DNA of 64,000 nt from an uncultured Bacteroidales bacterium (GTDB lineage: Bacteria; Bacteroidota; Bacteroidia; Bacteroidales; JAGOPY01). The position numbers and the translations under genes were made by a program. Position 1 is the first letter of the stretch. Every line of letters starts with the position of its first letter. The stretch spans positions 15,594 to 79,593 of the forward strand of contig CAYJNJ010000004.1 in NCBI GenBank assembly GCA_964371595.1. The letters are read 5' to 3'. Positions 6,535-62,118 of the stretch are shown one piece after another. The notes beneath the pieces are model-generated. The model was not told the DNA's origin. It ran no database searches and saw only the letters and a program-made list of their open reading frames with translations.

Positions 6535-6626
6535 GCCACAAAAGCACTAAAACACTAAATAACACTAAAGTTATTGACTTAATAATCTGTTTTTTGTGAC
6601 ATTTTGTGTTTTGGTGTTTTTGTGGC
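6535..6626. repeat. 92-bp REPIN-like hairpin element (CACAAAA/CACTAAA words), copy B
   Basis: It runs GCCACAAAAGCACTAAAACACTAAATAACACTAAAG, then loop TTATTGACTTAATAATCTG, then TTTTTTGTGACATTTTGTGTTTTGGTGTTTTTGTGGC. By hand alignment it is 83/92 identical, without gaps, to 62027-62118. Confidence 0.9.
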
Positions 6627-6636
6627 ATATTTTAAA

Positions 6637-6676
6637 AATCCGTGTAAATCCGTTGCATCCGTGTCATCCGCGTGCC
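6637..6676. repeat. Tandem degenerate ATCCGTG words (four copies)
   Basis: Sequence AATCCGTGTAAATCCGTTGCATCCGTGTCATCCGCGTGCC. A related array at 55402-55440 ends in the same ATCCGYGTGCC. Confidence 0.8.
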
Positions 6677-15716: not shown

Positions 15717-16574
15717 TTACCTGTCAGCGTCCGCAGGACCTGACAGGGTTAAAGCGACAAGTTCCTTCCACAGCTTCTCCTCCGGCACCGGAGCCGTGAC
15801 TTTGATCATTTCTTTACTTACGGGATGGATGAATTCGATATACCGCGAATGAAGGCTGATCGACCCGTCGGGATTGGAGCGCGGCGCCCCGTATTTCAGG
15901 TCGCCTTTGATCGGGCTGCCGATGGCGGCAAGCTGCGCCCTGATCTGGTGATGGCGGCCGGTAAGAAGTTCAACCTCGAGAAGGTCATAACGGTCGCCGG
16001 AAGCAATTTTCCTGTACCTGAGCTCCGCCTTCTGCCGGCCTTCTCCCGGGGTATCGTAAGCATATGACTTATTCTGCTTTTCGTTCCGCGTAAGAAAATG
16101 CGTTAGGTGGAGCCATTCAGAAGTTGGACAATTGGACAATTGGACAATTGGACAAATTAACCTACCTTTTGTGTCCAACTGTCCAACTGTCAACTGTCCA
16201 ACTAAAGCCCAGTAAACCTTCCTTACCTCCCTGCCCTTAAACATCTCATTCATCCTTGCCAGCGCCTTGCTGGTGCGTGCAAAAATGACGGCGCCGCTCA
16301 CCGGCCGGTCGAGGCGGTGCACCACGCCAAGGAAAACCGCCCCCGGCTTATTGTACTTTTCTTTAATGTATAGCTTGAGTGTCTCAACCAAAGGCTCGTC
16401 GCCGGTCTTGTCACCCTGCACGATCTCACCCGGCCGCTTGTTTACTATCAGCAGGTGGTTGTCTTCGAATAGCACAACCTCACCCCCTTTGACCCCCTGC
16501 CCCCTATTCCCCCTCTCCAATATGGAGAGGGGGACAGGGGGTGAGGTCTTTGGACTAATACTGCTCCCTCTCAT
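15717..16574 (-). CDS. RluA-family RNA pseudouridine synthase carrying an internal in-frame hairpin-repeat insertion
   Basis: It has the HRLDRPVSG catalytic motif and [25 protein letters not shown]. The first 33 codons of the long ORF translate the GC-rich palindrome, so the true start may be GTG at 16475. Residues encoded by 16122-16203 are repeat-derived. Confidence 0.8.
16122..16203. repeat. Intragenic hairpin of TTGGACAAT words inside the RluA-family CDS
   Basis: The left arm AGTTGGACAATTGGACAATTGGACAATTGGACAAA is followed by loop TTAACCTACCTTTT and right arm GTGTCCAACTGTCCAACTGTCAACTGTCCAACT. The reading frame stays open. Confidence 0.85.
16478..16546. repeat. 69-bp GC-rich palindromic element, copy 2 (inverse orientation)
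   Basis: Its reverse complement (CCTCACCCCCTGTCCCCCTCTCCATATTGGAGAGGGGGAATAGGGGGCAGGGGGTCAAAGGGGGTGAGG) matches 1166-1234 at roughly 60 of 69 positions. It fills the gap between the panB stop (16555) and the probable rluA-family start. Confidence 0.9.
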
Positions 16575-26720: not shown

Positions 26721-27224
26721 TTATTTAATCCCTGCAACTGTAAAAGGATAATCAGGAAGATCTCCGATTTGCCGGATTGAAGCATGTACCGGATCAACAC
26801 GGCAAAAAATATGCTGAAGGCCATTGGTGAGCATCAGCAGTCCTACCTTCAAGGTCATATTATACCGGACGGCCTGGTCGAGCACCTCCTGCGAAAGAGG
26901 CACCGATGGCGCTTTGCATTCAACCACCAGCAGGGCATTGCCATTCCTGTCGAAGACGGCTATATCGAATCTTTTTCGGGTATTGAACAGCCTGATCTCC
27001 GACTCGGATTTCACAAGCGTCAGGGGGACATGTTTTTCTACAACCAGGTACTGAAGGACATGCTGCCGGACCCATTCCTCGGGCGTCAGGGCGACGTACT
27101 TCATCCGGACAGGGTCGAAAATGGATAATTTTCCATCTTTTTCCACGATCTGGAAATTATAGCCGGGGAAGTTGAGCTTGATCATTTCCTGGATACAGAT
27201 TTTTACAATTAATGGGCTGATCAA
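26721..27224 (-). CDS. Type I restriction enzyme HsdR N-terminal-domain-like protein (stand-alone PD-(D/E)XK-like)
   Basis: 167 aa. IFDPVRMKYVALTPEEWVRQH...DIAVFDRNGNALLVVECK is the characteristic pattern. No hsdM, hsdS or helicase gene lies nearby. Confidence 0.6.
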   Translation of the reverse strand: MISPLIVKICIQEMIKLNFPGYNFQIVEKDGKLSIFDPVRMKYVALTPEEWVRQHVLQYLVVEKHVPLTLVKSESEIRLFNTRKRFDIAVFDRNGNALLVVECKAPSVPLSQEVLDQAVRYNMTLKVGLLMLTNGLQHIFCRVDPVHASIRQIGDLPDYPFTVAGIK

Positions 27225-27406
27225 AAATAGGATAATTCGGGTTAAATTGAGGGGGGATAAAAAGTTATCAACTGCCTCTTGACTTCCCTGGATTTATTCC
27301 ATATTTTAGCAGTGTCCATTTCAGCCCCCACTGATTTATCAAACCAAACCAATCCAAATGAAATGGCATTTTCATAATAGACTTTTCGATAGGGTGAATA
27401 GGATTT

Positions 27407-27466
27407 ATTCTATTCTATTCTATTCTATTCTATTCTATTCTATTCTATTCTATTCTATTCTATTCT
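27407..27466. repeat. Perfect pentanucleotide microsatellite (ATTCT)12
   Basis: I counted 12 uninterrupted units, ending 113 nt upstream of the ATG at 27580. Confidence 0.95.
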
Positions 27467-35830: not shown

Positions 35831-35921
35831 GCCACAAAAACACTAAATCACAAAATATCACAAAAATCTGATTTTTAAGTTAATACTTTTGTGTTCTTTA
35901 GTGTTTTCGTGCTTTAGTGGC
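35831..35921. repeat. 91-bp REPIN-like hairpin element, copy C (inverse orientation)
   Basis: It runs GCCACAAAAACACTAAATCACAAAATATCACAAAAATCTGATTTTTAAGTTAATACTTTTGTGTTCTTTAGTGTTTTCGTGCTTTAGTGGC. Its reverse complement aligns along its whole length with copies B and J, including the loop core. Confidence 0.9.
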
Positions 35922-42180: not shown

Positions 42181-42193
42181 TGTGCTAAATTAA

Positions 42194-42226
42194 AAAAGTT
42201 TTAAGTGTTGAGGGTTGAGGGTTGAG
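42194..42226. repeat. Left arm of long-range inverted repeat (TTGAGGG words)
   Basis: AAAAGTTTTAAGTGTTGAGGGTTGAGGGTTGAG pairs with 42482-42509, whose reverse complement is AAAAGTTTTGAGTGTTGAGGGTTGAGGG (27/28 match). Confidence 0.85.
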
Positions 42227-42375
42227 TTATATTGGATTTGTCGATTTTTTTCATTGAAAATGGAACCTGATATTTATCGAAATTTTTTACAATTAAGTAT
42301 TATCATTAAAACTCTAACTCAATAATTCTAACTCAATAATTGAGCCCGCTCCGAAATGTCAAATTTCTGAAAGTT

Positions 42376-42468
42376 GCCACTAAAGCACCAAAACACAAAA
42401 TCACACAAAAAATTGGTTATCAATGTAATAATATTTTGTGAATTTTCGTGTTTTAGTGATTTTGTGGC
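42376..42468. repeat. REPIN-like hairpin element, copy D (divergent loop), nested inside the 42194/42509 inverted repeat
   Basis: It runs from GCCACTAAAGCACCAAAACACAAAATCACACAAAAA to ATTTTGTGAATTTTCGTGTTTTAGTGATTTTGTGGC. Confidence 0.8.
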
Positions 42469-42481
42469 TAAAAAAGGCTTT

Positions 42482-42509
42482 CCCTCAACCCTCAACACTC
42501 AAAACTTTT
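42482..42509. repeat. Right arm of long-range inverted repeat; overlaps the last codons of msrAB
   Basis: Sequence CCCTCAACCCTCAACACTCAAAACTTTT. The terminal KKF-stop of msrAB is encoded within it. Confidence 0.85.
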
Positions 42510-43422
42510 TCGTGTAGCCGTGGCAATACGGCAGCGTCCCTTTATGCTCGTAGTAATCCTGGTGGTATTCTTCGGCAGGCCAGAATGTGGTGGCTTTGGT
42601 CACTTTCGTCACGACCTTATATCCTTTGCCTTTCAGGATGCTGATCAGATTTTCAGCAACTTTTTTTTGTTCATCGTCGATGTAAAAGATCTCTGAGCGG
42701 TACTGGTCGCCGATATCGGGGCCCTGCCCGCCCACCTGGGTGGGGTCGTGGATCTCCAGGAAGAGCTTTGCGAGCTCTTCGTAAGAGACCAGCTCAGGCT
42801 TGAAGACGATTTCAACGGCTTCGGCATGGCCAGTTGTATGGCTGCAGACTTCCTGGTAAGTGGGATGGTCTTTATGACCGCCGATATACCCTGAGGTAAC
42901 TGAAACGACCCCGTTTTTCTGCTGCATGAAGTATTCCACTCCCCAGAAGCAACCGCCGGCAAATATGGCGCGGGAAGTGGCAGGTTCCGCCTGTTGTGGG
43001 GCGGGGACAAAATTCATGGAAACCGAGTTCACGCAATGCCGTGTATCCTTATCCGTAAAGCCTTCGCCAAGGAACACATGCCCGAGGTGCCCGCCGCACC
43101 TGGCACACACGATCTCTGTGCGCATCCCGTCGCGATCGGGTATCCGCACAACGGCACCCTTTATTTCATCATCGAAACTCGGCCAGCCGCAATGCGAATC
43201 GAACTTATCTTCCGACCTGTAAAGCGGGGCATCGCACTGCTTGCAGGTATAGGTCCCTTTTTCTTTTGTATTGGTGTATTCGCCCGTCCAGGGCCTTTCT
43301 GTACCTTTATTGAGAATGACATTTTCTTCCTCGGGTGTCAGCTTGTTATAATTCATGGTTTCCTGTGCTAAATTAATAAGCGGTAGAAAAAGTATCGTGA
43401 ATGTTATGATGATTGTCTTCAT
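42499..43422 (-). CDS. msrAB: Bifunctional methionine sulfoxide reductase MsrB-MsrA, secreted
   Basis: It has a signal peptide. The MsrB half has CxxC pairs and RHCVNS, and the MsrA half has GGCFWG. Confidence 0.9.
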   Translation of the reverse strand: MKTIIITFTILFLPLINLAQETMNYNKLTPEEENVILNKGTERPWTGEYTNTKEKGTYTCKQCDAPLYRSEDKFDSHCGWPSFDDEIKGAVVRIPDRDGMRTEIVCARCGGHLGHVFLGEGFTDKDTRHCVNSVSMNFVPAPQQAEPATSRAIFAGGCFWGVEYFMQQKNGVVSVTSGYIGGHKDHPTYQEVCSHTTGHAEAVEIVFKPELVSYEELAKLFLEIHDPTQVGGQGPDIGDQYRSEIFYIDDEQKKVAENLISILKGKGYKVVTKVTKATTFWPAEEYHQDYYEHKGTLPYCHGYTKKF

Positions 43423-45049: not shown

Positions 45050-45206
45050 AAGAGGCTGTCTCAAAAGTTCTTAACCACAAAGGAGCACGAAGGATTTCAC
45101 GAAGGCACACTAAGGTTCTGATCTGGTAATCAAATACTTTGTGCGACTTAGTGACGTACTTTGTGCGACTTTGTGGTAAAAAGAAGGATTTTGAGACATC
45201 CTCTTC
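45050..45206. repeat. Nested hairpin: outer stem AAGAGGCTGTCTCAAAA/TTTTGAGACATCCTCTT enclosing a CACAAAG/CACGAAG word hairpin
   Basis: The inner arms are 45075-45115 (CCACAAAGGAGCACGAAGGATTTCACGAAGGCACACTAAGG) and 45137-45176 (CTTTGTGCGACTTAGTGACGTACTTTGTGCGACTTTGTGG). Confidence 0.8.
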
Positions 45207-54039: not shown

Positions 54040-54046
54040 AGAAAAA

Positions 54047-54176
54047 GTCATCAGTCTTCAGTCGTCAGTCGTCAGTGAAAAACTTCTTTTCGAAAACTTG
54101 GTCAGTAAAAATATAATGTACATTGATTGATGACTGAAGACTGACGACTGACGACTGAAGACTGACGACTGATGAC
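54047..54176. repeat. Hairpin of heptamer words: (GTCnTCA)x4 facing (TGAnGAC)x7 across a 50-nt spacer
   Basis: The left arm GTCATCAGTCTTCAGTCGTCAGTCGTCAGTG spans 54047-54077. The right arm TGATGAC TGAAGAC TGACGAC TGACGAC TGAAGAC TGACGAC TGATGAC spans 54128-54176. Confidence 0.9.
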
Positions 54177-54914: not shown

Positions 54915-55344
54915 AATTGAAGCCATTATAAGAAAATGCCTGATCTGCAATATTGCCATGATCGACCCGGAAGGCAAGCCTTATGTTATCCCGATGAACT
55001 TTGGCTTCGACGGGGAATACCTGTATTTCCACGGTAGTGCGAAAGGCAAAAAAGCCGATGTGCTGAAGAATAACCAGAATGTCTGCATTTCGTTCAGTAC
55101 CGATCATGAATTGCGGTATGTGAATGAAGAGGTGGCCTGCAGCTGGAGCATGCGTTATCGCAGTGTCATTGCGTATGGGAAAGCTGAATTTGTTGAAGAT
55201 TTTGATGAAAAGGTCAAATGCCTGAATGTGGTTATGGCGCATTACACCGACCGGCCATTTGAGTACAATGCCCCTTCAATTAAGGAAGTGATGGTTTTCA
55301 GGGTGAAGGCGGAGAAGATGGATGGAAGGGTTTATGGGTATTAG
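54883..55344 (+). CDS. Pyridoxamine 5'-phosphate oxidase family protein (NimA-like fold)
   Basis: 153 aa. CNIAMIDPEGKPYVIPMNFGFDGEYLYFHGSAKGKK is the typical split-barrel N-terminal pattern. Confidence 0.7.
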   Translation: MKNRPILSSPEIEAIIRKCLICNIAMIDPEGKPYVIPMNFGFDGEYLYFHGSAKGKKADVLKNNQNVCISFSTDHELRYVNEEVACSWSMRYRSVIAYGKAEFVEDFDEKVKCLNVVMAHYTDRPFEYNAPSIKEVMVFRVKAEKMDGRVYGY

Positions 55345-55440
55345 TGGTGAGGTGGTGGAGTGGTGGAGTGGTGAGGCGGTGAGGTTTTGAGGTTTTGAAG
55401 ATATCCGTGAAAATCCGTAAAATCCGTGTTATCCGTGTGC
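55344..55440. repeat. Three consecutive tandem word arrays: GGTGGTGAG-like, GGTTTTGA x2, ATCCGTG x4
   Basis: The sequence is TAGTGGTGAGGTGGTGGAGTGGTGGAGTGGTGAGGCGGTGAGGTTTTGAGGTTTTGAAGATATCCGTGAAAATCCGTAAAATCCGTGTTATCCGTGTGC. It fills the convergent gap between 55344 and 55443. Confidence 0.85.
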
Positions 55441-56025: not shown

Positions 56026-57027
56026 TCAAGCTAACTCGGAAAGGTTCAGTTCGTTCCAGATCAAATCCTTCAGTTTAAGAATGCCTTCCCCGGTAACGGA
56101 AGAAATGAAGACGGTCTTTATTTTCGGCAGCTCGAGTTTCATTTCCGATTTCAGTTCGGCGTCGAGCAGGTCGGACTTGGAAACAGCCAGCAGCCTTGGT
56201 TTGTCGAGCAGTTCGGGATTATACTCCTTCAGTTCATTGAGAAGTATCTTGTATTCTTTCCGGATATCTTTCGAATCGGCGGGAATAAGAAACAGCAATA
56301 AAGAATTTCGTTCGATATGCCGTAAAAAGCGCAGCCCTAATCCCCGGCCTTCGCTTGCCCCTTCGATGATCCCGGGGATATCGGCCATAACGAATGAAGC
56401 TCCGTCGCGATAGGAAACGATGCCCAGGTTCGGCGTCAGGGTGGTAAACGGATAATCGGCAATTTCGGGTTTAGCGGCAGAAACGACTGAAAGCAGGGTG
56501 GATTTCCCGGCATTGGGAAAGCCCACCAGCCCGACGTCGGCCAGTATTTTCAGCTCAAGGATGACCCAGCCTTCCTGTCCGGGTTCACCGGGCTGTGCGA
56601 AACGAGGCGTCTGGTGCGTTGAAGTCTTGAAATGATCGTTGCCAAGTCCACCCCTTCCACCCGGCATGAGTATCTTTTTCTCGTCATGCTCAGTGATCTC
56701 GAAGAGTATCTCGTCAGAATCGGCCATCTTTGCCACTGTGCCAAGGGGGACCTCGATGATCTTATCTTCACCGAAAGCGCCGGTGCTGAGCGATTTGCCC
56801 CCAACTCCCCCATTGGTGGCCTTCAGGTGCTTGGTGAATTTGAGATGAAGCAGCGTCCAGAGGTGGCGGTTGCCTTTGAGGATGATATGCCCGCCGCGGC
56901 CGCCGTCACCGCCGTCAGGACCGCCCTTTGGGATGTACTTGGCCCTGTTGAGATGTCTCGAACCGGCGCCACCTTTTCCGGACTGGCAGTGTATCTTGAC
57001 GTAATCGACGAAATTTGGGGAGGACAT
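56026..57027 (-). CDS. obg: GTPase ObgE/CgtA
   Basis: It has the Obg fold N-terminus ([18 protein letters not shown], glycine-rich [12 protein letters not shown]) and the G-domain motifs [13 protein letters not shown] and SKSD. Confidence 0.95.
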
Positions 57028-57044
57028 TATTGGTTTTTTAACTA

Positions 57045-57092
57045 TTTCGCAAAGTTAAGCAGAGTTTCGCAGAGTTTCGCGGAGAAGTTAAA
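57045..57092. repeat. Left 48-nt arm (TTTCGCAGAG words) of the inverted repeat bracketing the GxxExxY gene
   Basis: TTTCGCAAAGTTAAGCAGAGTTTCGCAGAGTTTCGCGGAGAAGTTAAA pairs imperfectly with the reverse complement of 57529-57576 (TTTCGCAGAGTTGCGCAAAGTTTTCGCAGAGGTACGCAGAGGTTTAAA). Confidence 0.85.
57050..57057 (-). promoter_or_regulatory. -7 promoter box TAACTTTG upstream of obg (inside the repeat arm)
   Basis: TAnnTTTG on the minus strand, 23 nt upstream of the obg ATG. The 13-mer TTCGCAAAGTTAA is shared with the hpt upstream region. Confidence 0.45.
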
Positions 57093-57095
57093 TCA

Positions 57096-57476
57096 TTATA
57101 AACCATTGACTACACGTCTGACTCCATTCTTTAATAAAGGCACATTAAAATTTATCAATAGCCCTAATTTATAATGGCCTAATTTCAAATAAGTTAAAAC
57201 CTGGGCAAAGTGAACATCCATCAAAGAATCAACAGTTTTCAGCTCAATTACAACCAGATTATCAACCAATAAATCAATCCGATAACCATGATTTAAATGA
57301 ACATTTTTATAAATAATGGGTAATGGAAGTTCTTTAACCACCAATAATCCAGACTCCTTCAGATCGTAAAACAAACATTCCCGATAGGCTGATTCAAGTA
57401 ATCCTGGCCCGAGGTGGCTATGAATATCAATAGCCATTCCAATCACTTTTTGTGATATAATATTCTCTGGTAACAT
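57096..57476 (-). CDS. GxxExxY family protein (PD-(D/E)XK nuclease-like fold)
   Basis: 126 aa with the eponymous motif GLLESAY. IDLLVDNLVVIELK resembles the (D/E)xK core strand. The gene is bracketed by 48-nt inverted word-repeat arms. Confidence 0.8.
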   Translation of the reverse strand: MLPENIISQKVIGMAIDIHSHLGPGLLESAYRECLFYDLKESGLLVVKELPLPIIYKNVHLNHGYRIDLLVDNLVVIELKTVDSLMDVHFAQVLTYLKLGHYKLGLLINFNVPLLKNGVRRVVNGL

Positions 57477-57528
57477 AGTTGAAAAATTTAAGGTTAGAAT
57501 AAATGAAGATTGATTGTGAGGATTTTAG

Positions 57529-57576
57529 TTTAAACCTCTGCGTACCTCTGCGAAAACTTTGCGCAACTCTGCGAAA
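57529..57576. repeat. Right 48-nt arm of the inverted repeat bracketing the GxxExxY gene
   Basis: Sequence TTTAAACCTCTGCGTACCTCTGCGAAAACTTTGCGCAACTCTGCGAAA. Confidence 0.85.
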
Positions 57577-57645
57577 TAAAAAAAGGAGATCTCTAACCTA
57601 TTAATCCGGAAAATCAAAAAAAATACCCGGTCAATCAAAAAAAAA

Positions 57646-58179
57646 TTAAACTATTTTATAAATATCACCGTAATTCCTTCCAAACCCATCATAATCCAGA
57701 CCGTACCCCACAATGAATTCATTTGGTATCTCCATGCCAAGGTAGTCAATCCGGAAACTCTCACGGAAAGCCGTTGGTTTGAAAAGCAAAGCGACCAGCT
57801 TCACATCTTCCACACCAAGGTAATACAGCTTATTGATGAGATACTGCATGGTTGTGCCGGTATCGATAATATCTTCAAGGATGACGATATATCTTCCACG
57901 GAGTTTTTCATTCAGACCGATCAGTTCTTTCACATCTGAAGTCGTAGATGTGCCGGAATAAGAGGCCAGCTTGATAAAACTGATTTCACTTTCTATGGTG
58001 ATTTTCCGGTAAAGATCAGCGGCAAAGATAAAAGCGCCATTCAGCACAACGAGAAAAAGAGGGTTTTTGCCCTGCAGGTCATGGTTCAGCCTGGCTGCCA
58101 GACTTTCGATGGCAGCTTCGATTTCTTCAGCTTTTATAGAAAGTTTAAATTCTTTATCTTTGACCTTTATAGATTTCAT
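57646..58179 (-). CDS. hpt: Hypoxanthine phosphoribosyltransferase
   Basis: 177 aa with the PRPP-binding motif VILEDIIDTGTT and the C-terminal GYGLDY. Confidence 0.9.
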   Translation of the reverse strand: MKSIKVKDKEFKLSIKAEEIEAAIESLAARLNHDLQGKNPLFLVVLNGAFIFAADLYRKITIESEISFIKLASYSGTSTTSDVKELIGLNEKLRGRYIVILEDIIDTGTTMQYLINKLYYLGVEDVKLVALLFKPTAFRESFRIDYLGMEIPNEFIVGYGLDYDGFGRNYGDIYKIV

Positions 58180-58215: not shown

Positions 58216-58264
58216 AATTCCAAATTCCAAATTCCAAATTCCAAATTCCAAATTCCAAATTCCA
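58216..58264. repeat. Perfect heptanucleotide microsatellite (AATTCCA)7
   Basis: I counted 7 uninterrupted units in the divergent hpt/purE intergenic region. Confidence 0.95.
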
Positions 58265-58341
58265 ATCAATGACCATCAATAATAAAACATTCCCGAACTT
58301 AAACCTAAACACTTAACCCTTAACACTTATATTTTACCACT

Positions 58342-58858: not shown

Positions 58859-59192
58859 CCACTAAGGCACTAAGGGCACTTAGAAACACTGAGATTAATG
58901 CTTAATGCTTAATGCTTAATGTTTAATTTTTAATACTTATTTTTTAATGTTTTAGATTCAGTCCTTTTTTTACTAATATTAATACATCCTTTTTTAAAGC
59001 TGTTATGAAAAAAGATTGGAACCCGGAATTTCCTGAAGCCAGCCATGTCAAAATTAATATCTTAAATCTGAGACCGTGGGTATATTTTATAGAATGTAAA
59101 AACGATAGCGGACTTCAAATTGTTAAGAAAATCGTAAAAATCTGATCAATATGTATCCTTAGTGTTTCTTAGTGCACTAAGTGCCTAAGTGG
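58859..59192. repeat. Hairpin with CACTAAG-word arms (58859-58893 / 59157-59192) and a 263-bp loop containing (TTAATGC)n
   Basis: CCACTAAGGCACTAAGGGCACTTAGAAACACTGAG faces CCTTAGTGTTTCTTAGTGCACTAAGTGCCTAAGTGG. The loop begins with a degenerate 7-mer array at 58895-58936. Confidence 0.8.
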
Positions 59193-59199
59193 TGAAAAT

Positions 59200-62026: not shown

Positions 62027-62118
62027 GCCACGAAAGCACGAAAACACTAAATTACACAAAAGTTATTGGCTTAATAATCAGATTTTTGTGATATTTTGTG
62101 TTTTTGTGTTTTTGTGGC
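62027..62118. repeat. 92-bp REPIN-like hairpin element, copy J
   Basis: The sequence is GCCACGAAAGCACGAAAACACTAAATTACACAAAAGTTATTGGCTTAATAATCAGATTTTTGTGATATTTTGTGTTTTTGTGTTTTTGTGGC. It is 83/92 identical to copy B. Confidence 0.9.

Follow-up and report, generated by a model that had tools for sequence, protein, structure and literature searches.

We analyzed a 64,000-nt stretch of DNA from an uncultured Bacteroidales bacterium (contig CAYJNJ010000004.1, positions 15,594 to 79,593; hereafter, the window) and found a small nuclease-type gene of the GxxExxY family lodged, together with two inverted arrays of a short tandem word, CRCNRAG, between the host genes hpt and obg. We read the segment at 57045-57645 as an ancient, discrete cassette that would be transcribed by read-through and whose arrays would be the cognate cis-site of the encoded nuclease, standing to the gene much as REPINs stand to the gene of a RAYT (REP-associated tyrosine transposase; REP, repetitive extragenic palindrome). 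The probability that we give this reading is about 0.42. The cassette is one member of a widespread class of small open reading frames (ORFs) that are bracketed by word arms and lie co-directionally in operons. In the order in which the minus strand is read, the parts of the locus are the following.

57646 to 58179, minus strand: hpt (hypoxanthine phosphoribosyltransferase), the host gene upstream, from profile annotation.
57045 to 57645, minus strand: the whole cassette of ~600 bp, made up of a 69-nt leader, the 5' arm, a 52-nt spacer, the GxxExxY ORF and the 3' arm; defined by five orthologous loci and absent from loci L254 and L255.
57577 to 57645, minus strand: the 69-nt leader from the hpt stop codon to the 5' arm, GACCGGGTATTTTTT..TTTTCCGGATTAATAG, conserved in all orthologs and absent at the empty sites.
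57529 to 57576, no strand assigned: the 5' arm (in gene sense), with the minus-strand words TTTCGCAGAG, TTGCGCAAAG, TTTTCGCAGAG and GTACGCAGAG.
57477 to 57528, minus strand: the A+T-rich spacer from the 5' arm to the ATG, not conserved in the five-ortholog alignment.
57096 to 57476, minus strand: the GxxExxY (PDDEXK_3) gene of 126 aa, supported by Pfam and NCBIfam profiles, residue alignments and the ratio of nonsynonymous to synonymous divergence (dN/dS).
57045 to 57092, no strand assigned: the 3' arm (in gene sense), with the minus-strand words CTCCGCGAAA, CTCTGCGAAA, CTCTGCTTAA and CTTTGCGAAA.
56026 to 57027, minus strand: obg (GTPase ObgE), the host gene downstream, from profile annotation.

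An earlier note on this DNA had described a GxxExxY gene between obg and hpt with inverted 48-nt word arms, and we recovered this layout in every part. Each arm holds four ~10-nt words of the TTTCGCAGAG type, the two arms are inverted and separated by 436 nt, and the words of the window cassette fit CRCNRAG at a spacing of 10-11-10. Aligned locally, one arm and the reverse complement of the other scored 39, compared with 16.2 +/- 3.1 for dinucleotide-preserving shuffles, of which none among 2,000 reached 39. The energy of the arm–arm duplex was −49 kcal/mol (−25 +/- 4 for the shuffles), and the minimum free energy (MFE) fold of the 551-nt sense RNA was closed by the arm–arm stem (z = −4.7). 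Pairing on the antisense strand was equally good, at −50.4 kcal/mol. The ORF between the arms matched PF13366 (PDDEXK_3; E 2e-39, 134.9 bits with a cut-off of 22) and TIGR04256 (GxxExxY; E 1e-41, 142 bits with a cut-off of 35), both over residues 7-123. Residues G25, E28, Y31, D68, E78 and K80, including the E78-x-K80 motif, were invariant in alignments of 20 and 56 sequences, and judged by these residues the PD-(D/E)XK nuclease gene appears to be catalytically intact.

The arrangement recurs across the family. Scanning one genome per species, we retrieved 80 GxxExxY loci, of which the 76 with an intact gene were counted; the loci span many Bacteroidota as well as Anaerolineales, Ignavibacteriota, Acidobacteriota and others. 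Within the 100 nt upstream of the gene, the word CRCNRAG reached 2.0 per locus, and within the 50 nt downstream its complement reached 1.8, against a distal background of ~0.05. Taking at least two words on both sides as a bracket, we found one at 45 of the 76 GxxExxY genes (59%) and at a single one of 153 control ORFs from the same loci (0.7%), so that the earlier expectation of inverted arms around the paralogues was borne out. The anatomy of the arrays was uniform across loci: four words spaced 9-10, 11-12 and 9-10, in an array 36-39 nt long. The same word surrounds a 51%-identical protein on the G+C-rich contig L256. It recurs in Gemmatirosa, at the fabD|fabG junction of Sphingomonas and in Bacteroides finegoldii, where the GxxExxY gene lies between radA and a flavin adenine dinucleotide (FAD) protein gene. 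Both neighbors were co-oriented with the GxxExxY gene at 47 loci and both were opposite at one, and the gene lay ~94 nt from each neighbor. Across several phyla, the bracket with this same word is thus general for GxxExxY genes.

Some loci depart from the simple layout. In Draconibacterium, the GxxExxY gene is flanked by two complete hairpins and not by split arms. Runs of at least eight four-word arrays, alternating in sense and antisense, lie beside the GxxExxY gene at L020 (2755-4245) and L021 (2383-4087), and those of L020 form a tandem unit of ~340 nt. Among 2.9 million viral contigs we found only one GxxExxY locus. The same contigs contained 33 loci with the array pattern, none of them with a GxxExxY gene, and the ten neighboring small ORFs that were tested had no Pfam match.

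The age of the cassette can be read from its orthologs. The closest homologues of the protein, 79-98% identical, are encoded on contigs of uncultured Bacteroidales, all of them in the slot between hpt and obg. Five distinct orthologous loci (the window, L005, L010, L011 and L012) have kept the gene and both arms, with CGCARAG four times upstream and CTYTGCG four times downstream in each; in their alignment the word cores are invariant and the spacer between arm and ATG has diverged. Two sister clades, represented by L254 and L255 (84% and 80% identical in Obg, respectively), share the synteny of the window (M16 peptidase/methyltransferase, purE, hpt, obg, PAP2, PNPOx) and have hpt|obg gaps of 9 and 16 nt that hold neither gene nor arms. 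Because the two lack the gene, the arms and the leader alike, the ~600 bp at 57045-57645 represent a single indel, and because the empty sites contain no array, the arms came or went together with the gene. We rejected the alternative of a gene landing in a hairpin already present at hpt|obg on the same grounds, as arms are missing from the empty sites of L254 and L255. Beside obg, L012 still has the ancestral spacer AAATTAAAATAGCCC that is seen in L255.

The GxxExxY gene has evolved under purifying selection, with a dN/dS of 0.07-0.14 among the orthologs, and its synonymous divergence (dS) of ~1-2 between orthologs is similar to that of Obg and Hpt. The words of the arms have been retained over a divergence at which neutral sequence would be randomised. 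The cassette is therefore an old, maintained and vertically inherited insertion to which the arms belong. Two apparent signs of movement were dismissed: the AAATAGTT repeat, considered as a target-site duplication, flanks the window copy and is missing from the orthologs, and we regard it as a coincidence; and the candidate recent paralogues in Draconibacterium, P0046 and P0058, are one residue apart and come from the same locus in different strains. Taken together, the data point to a resident, selected element more than to an actively moving one. The earlier note had proposed a hairpin-borne selfish element. The proposal withstood three findings on which it could have fallen, as the arms are more complementary than shuffled sequence, paralogues are flanked by arms, and the arms are tied to the presence of the gene at hpt|obg, with both in the five orthologs and neither in L254 and L255. 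No sign of recent mobility was seen, and the orthologs are old and maintained (dS ~1-2, dN/dS ~0.1).

A similar bracket surrounds genes of the four-helix-bundle family PF05635, the protein family of 23S rRNA intervening sequences (IVSs), whose shared habit the earlier note had suspected. We reached 11 PF05635 loci from the PDB entry 2RLD (BT0352, a four-helix-bundle protein of Bacteroides thetaiotaomicron), and 10 of the 11 had inverted tandem-word arms beyond every shuffle. These loci (L258, L261, L265 and L269-L276) come from Bacteroides, Bernardetia, Treponema, Nostoc, Planktothrix, Euhalothece and Chlorohelix, and their genes lie co-directionally between host genes such as araD|araA, aminotransferase|DAHP synthase and resistance-nodulation-division (RND) adaptor|permease. 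Their words are 7-8 nt long and differ from locus to locus (ATTGACA, TTAGTGA, CTGGTCA, TTCAAAA, TTCGTAA, AATCCCC and others). At the orthologous araD|araA sites, ATTGACA in B. thetaiotaomicron has become ATTGAKA in L265 in both arms. In the cyanobacterial members (Nostoc, Planktothrix and Euhalothece) the arms take the form of heptamer arrays of the type known as short tandemly repeated repetitive (STRR) sequences, and at some PF05635 loci the 5' arm directly abuts the ATG. A single Bernardetia plasmid carries a GxxExxY gene with CACAGAG arms and a four-helix-bundle gene with TTAGTGA arms. A regular-expression search of 1.6 Mb of locus sequence found no four-helix-bundle genes, and the viral contigs contained no relative of BT0352. 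The architecture is common to the two families, and the word is fixed only in GxxExxY.

We then asked what is conserved in the GxxExxY arms, the word or the pairing. Across 46 alignable loci, 80% of the arm positions were Watson–Crick pairs, and the mismatches showed no excess of G·U over A·C in the sense RNA (91 vs. 102); given this symmetry, selection on the arms as sense-strand RNA was rejected. At the degenerate letters of the word, similarity was 0.68 between partner arms and 0.56 between non-partner arms, and in the spacers between words, 0.50 and 0.38, respectively. As partner arms are only slightly more alike, selection is visible on words and spacing and not on compensatory pairing. 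The invariant letters of the word by themselves suffice for a stable stem, and the likeness of partner and non-partner arms outside these letters does not speak positively for selection on an RNA stem. Within the GxxExxY bracket, it is, as far as the alignments tell, the words that are conserved rather than the pairing.

The words also occur without a gene. The earlier note had reported short-loop hairpins of the same architecture elsewhere in the window, and five of them indeed belong to the same word family and have the same layout, with exactly 4+4 words of the class CACNAAR, related to CRCNRAG. None has an assigned strand.

6537 to 6624: gene-less 4+4 hairpin of CACNAAR words with the loop GTTATTGACTTAATAATCTG, from the word scan.
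35833 to 35919: gene-less 4+4 hairpin with a loop like those at 6537 and 62029, in the opposite orientation.
42378 to 42466: gene-less 4+4 hairpin nested within the GTTGAGG/CCCTCAA arms at 42193-42510.
45076 to 45175: gene-less 4+4 hairpin of strict CRCNRAG words with a spacing of 10-12-10.
62029 to 62116: gene-less 4+4 hairpin with the same loop as at 6537.

Three of these hairpins share the loop GTTATTGRCTTAATAATCWG and are thus copies of one sequence, dispersed over the window. In metagenome contigs, an unbiased scan for the pattern yielded 138 four-word arrays, of which 76 were solitary, 38 formed divergent pairs and 16 convergent pairs, one had a partner 150-1200 nt away, and seven lay too near a contig end to be classified. 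Only two of the 138 immediately preceded a GxxExxY gene, and the metagenome arrays showed no orientation bias toward their flanking genes. That gene-less hairpins are 'empty or decayed forms' of the cassette, as the earlier note had it, is possible as one of their origins. For the window hairpins built from other words (TTGGACAA, AGTCGTC, GTTGAGG and others), any kinship with the CRCNRAG arms is putative.

For the expression of the cassette, we searched for signals of its own. An Rfam search of the window found no rRNA and no other RNA family, a scan of 56950-57750 found no intrinsic (rho-independent) terminator, that is, no short G+C-rich stem followed by a run of T, and the window cassette showed no excess of sigma-70-type promoters. 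The Bacteroidetes promoter pattern TAnnTTTG is absent from the 69-nt leader at 57577-57645, and nothing from the Rfam search, terminator scan or promoter pattern could be assigned to this leader. In the 3' arm, TAACTTTG (57050-57057, minus strand), 23 nt upstream of the obg ATG, fits the Bacteroidetes −7 pattern TAnnTTTG, and all five orthologs retain a match to the pattern in this arm; the 3' arm may thus serve as an outward promoter for obg.

In the mechanism that we propose, the cassette would have neither promoter nor terminator of its own, and its transcription would come by read-through from hpt. The encoded nuclease would have the CRCNRAG arrays as its cognate cis-site and would bind or cut them as duplex DNA, as an extruded hairpin or as a cruciform; this would explain why, across phyla and G+C contents, conservation falls on the word and not on the pairing. 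The gene and the gene-less arrays would correspond to a RAYT gene and its REPINs, the gene being that of a resident and largely immobile enzyme set between inverted copies of its repeat. In the transcript, pairing of the arms (−49 kcal/mol) could loop out the ORF, as in the 23S rRNA IVSs, and this loop-out may reduce the harm done to the host operon.

Several observations weigh against this reading. Eight of the 76 GxxExxY genes, and in addition Prevotella and Treponema copies, have no arrays. No direct repeat consistently flanks the cassette as a target-site duplication when the five orthologs are compared with the empty sites, no near-identical gene-bearing cassette was found at other loci, every close homologue examined being an ortholog at the same site, and past mobility rests on one indel for which a deletion in the sister clades is equally possible. 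A Foldseek search of the AlphaFold2 model of the 126-aa protein (pLDDT, the predicted local distance difference test score, 81) found no significant neighbor in the PDB, with a best E of 0.37 and weak matches to other PD-(D/E)XK nucleases, so that the type of substrate cannot be inferred from structure. Finally, the arbitrary words at PF05635 loci favor a structural logic based on pairing over sequence recognition. The GxxExxY word shared across phyla and the many solitary arrays favor, as judged from the surveyed loci, sequence recognition, and the two are not exclusive.

As a first alternative, the cassette would be an element acting solely at the RNA level, in the manner of an IVS: the arms would pair in the transcript of hpt, the GxxExxY gene and obg, a double-strand-specific RNase (RNase III) would cut the stem, free the loop with the ORF and separate the cistrons, and the nuclease would be unrelated to the arrays. 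The closing of the sense-RNA MFE fold by the arms (z = −4.7) and the duplex energy are as expected for such an element, and so are the strong co-orientation of GxxExxY genes with their operon neighbors and the tight spacing to them. The four-helix-bundle genes, with relatives in RNase III-excised 23S IVS stems (PMC4990558), have the same bracket made of arbitrary words, and in some of their loci the 5' arm abuts the ATG. We consider the explanation unlikely, however, as G·U and A·C mismatches are roughly equal, pairing reaches only ~80%, spacer and degenerate positions are hardly more complementary in partner arms, and the antisense strand pairs equally well. A mere stem does not need a word kept across phyla and G+C contents, and a hairpin is impossible for the 76 of 138 sampled arrays that are solitary. 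The arrays might instead belong to the host, for example as binding sites for a nucleoid or regulatory protein or as insulators, with GxxExxY an unrelated small gene that lands in them, or is retained between them, by preference. Most arrays do lie away from GxxExxY genes and without orientation bias to their flanking genes, arrays at orthologous spacers turn over among relatives, and the multicopy 'four tandem heptanucleotide repeat' of Geobacter metallireducens is ascribed to global regulators (PMC2700814). Host elements would nevertheless hardly account for hpt|obg sites that are empty of gene and array alike, for arrays on both sides of 59% of GxxExxY genes and 0.7% of control ORFs, for a word that follows the gene into phyla of very different host factors and G+C content, or for words that vary with the cargo family on the single Bernardetia plasmid, and we find them improbable.

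A free-standing gene similar to those of homing endonucleases, cutting the cassette-free hpt|obg allele and being copied in with the cassette during recombinational repair, with the arms as accessories, would fit a nuclease gene placed precisely and co-oriented between conserved genes and varying in presence by clade; other members of the family likewise interrupt fabD|fabG, radA|FAD and ade|manC. Against this, the gene is fixed and old within each clade examined, 2.9 million viral contigs contain just one GxxExxY locus, and the conserved word arrays and the abundance of gene-less arrays would be left unexplained; the chances of this alternative are slim. A low-complexity coincidence of two A+T-rich spacers, finally, would draw on the repetitiveness of both spacers, which inflates naive inverted-repeat scores. 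It is already refuted by the shuffles (0 of 2,000 reaching the observed score), the conservation of the arms in five orthologs at a dS of at least 1 and the bracket at 45 of 76 independent loci. Beyond the cognate-site reading of the cassette itself, one may extend the idea to GxxExxY and four-helix-bundle genes as a single class, spanning phyla, of mini-cassettes bracketed by hairpins ('operon intervening sequences') that insert co-directionally into operons and rRNA genes, with tandem-word arms that are the source of long-unexplained intergenic word repeats, the cyanobacterial STRR type included, and with a PD-(D/E)XK protein that recognises CRCNRAG arrays and propagates or maintains them. 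We regard this extension as tentative and, on balance, doubtful.

The cassette has partial counterparts among known systems. IVSs of 23S rRNA with an S23p or four-helix-bundle ORF are known in Leptospira and Coxiella (PMC4990558). The cassette resembles them as an insertion of ~430-600 nt with a terminal inverted-repeat stem around one small ORF, of a multi-copy family with no known function, in the sense orientation of the host transcript and with a sporadic yet vertically stable distribution; the arms, at −49 kcal/mol and closing the MFE fold, form such a stem. It differs in its location, between hpt and obg and hence in a string of mRNA rather than in helix 25 or 45 of the 23S rRNA, in its ORF, a PF13366 PD-(D/E)XK rather than an S23p or PF05635 four-helix-bundle ORF, and in its arms of four words with ~80% complementarity, whereas the stem in Coxiella is a near-perfect one of 28 bp. 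With REPIN-RAYT systems (PMC3116915, PMC5581495) the cassette has in common an enzyme gene set between repeat copies in inverted orientation, the occurrence of that repeat elsewhere between genes, singly or in inverted pairs, and a gene that is vertically inherited with no visible self-copying. The enzyme itself is different, a PD-(D/E)XK nuclease with PDDEXK_3 as its only Pfam match and not an HUH/Y1 transposase of the IS200/IS605-like type, and so is the repeat: the arm is a direct four-word array, itself non-palindromic, whereas a REP is an imperfect palindrome of 20-40 bp, tagged by GTAG or CGTC. The genes of GxxExxY proteins, unlike those of RAYTs, are often multi-copy in a genome.

Tandem heptamer arrays (the cyanobacterial STRR type, those of Geobacter metallireducens, PMC2700814, and TAACTGA of Beggiatoaceae, PMC4679880) are similar in their words of 7-10 nt, usually in three to six copies, their intergenic location, their occasional inverted pairs and their unexplained function. 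The reports treat the repeats alone, and the searched text of PMC2700814 and PMC4679880 yielded no enclosed gene family; the cassette differs also in its period of ~10 nt with a conserved core of 7 nt. Homing genes share with the cassette a nuclease gene between conserved genes whose presence differs by clade, and miniature inverted-repeat transposable elements (MITEs) share short gene-less derivatives with the same ends dispersed in the genome, three of which have a common loop here. Unlike transposons and MITEs, the cassette has no target-site duplication, and we found no recent gene-bearing copies. Hairpin ORFs in 23S rRNA, REPIN-RAYT systems and tandem heptamers are thus known already; what we did not find in the searched literature is the link that joins two abundant families, a common word-arm bracket in protein-coding operons and a conserved word specific to the nuclease family.

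The GxxExxY family comprises 18,656 clusters at 50% identity. To our knowledge, it has no known transposition chemistry and has not been recorded among homing enzymes or transposases; likewise, we know of no function for the four-helix-bundle '23S IVS' protein family, which is similarly abundant. Some GxxExxY members (P0361-P0365 and others) are 266-295 aa long and contain two tandem GxxExxY domains, fusions that would fit a protein working as a dimer. A sequence search of the PDB found no relative of the 126-aa protein, and the PADLOC defence models gave no significant match, with weak Cas4-like matches over the nuclease core (E 0.005-0.035). A survey of PD-(D/E)XK proteins lists the function of the family as 'unknown' (PMC3424549), and we found no description in the searched literature of the word-arm arrangement around GxxExxY, PF13366 or PF05635 genes.

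Word repeats of other kinds are scattered over the window. Short-loop hairpins at 16124-16203, 54046-54176, 1166-1226 and 16477-16547 are built of TTGGACAA x4 / TGTCCAAC x4, AGTCGTC and CCCCCT/AGGGGG words, and the TTGGACAA words are similar to the ATTGACA arms at Bacteroides four-helix-bundle genes. At 42193-42510, GTTGAGG/CCCTCAA arms enclose a 260-nt loop containing a complete CACNAAR hairpin, and a similar nest, in which AGTCTTT arms enclose an inner pair of arrays, occupies the purE-hpt spacer of L255. CACTAAG-type arms at 58860-58890 and 59155-59199 flank a loop of ~270 nt with a 46-aa ORF (59005-59145), which has a weak match to a type IX secretion system (T9SS) C-terminal sorting domain (E 0.037) and looks like a gene fragment caught between the arms; given this weak match as the only one in Pfam, a decayed GIY-YIG gene was rejected. 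The orthologous site has a short sense–antisense hairpin in L012 and a single array in L011. One-sided arrays lie in spacers at 58216-58265 (AATTCCA x7), 27406-27466 (TATTC x12), 55344-55428 (GTGGTGAG x6, then ATCCGTG-type words) and 6636-6670 (ATCCGTG-type words, adjoining the 6537 hairpin). The purE-hpt spacer holds a CGCAAAG array in L011 and L012 and AATTCCA x7 in the window. On the minus strand, at 26721-27185, a stand-alone 154-aa ORF consists of an HSDR_N_2 domain only (the nuclease-type domain found at the N terminus of type I restriction R proteins; E 1e-33) and adjoins the 394-nt spacer with the TATTC x12 array.

The bracket gives the GxxExxY and four-helix-bundle families a shared, highly non-random and experimentally approachable context, and for the intergenic tandem-word repeats, listed for decades but left unexplained, it provides a candidate origin. 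It also extends the 'ORF in a hairpin' logic of the rRNA IVSs to operons that code for proteins, among them essential ones such as hpt-obg, fabD-fabG and araD-araA.

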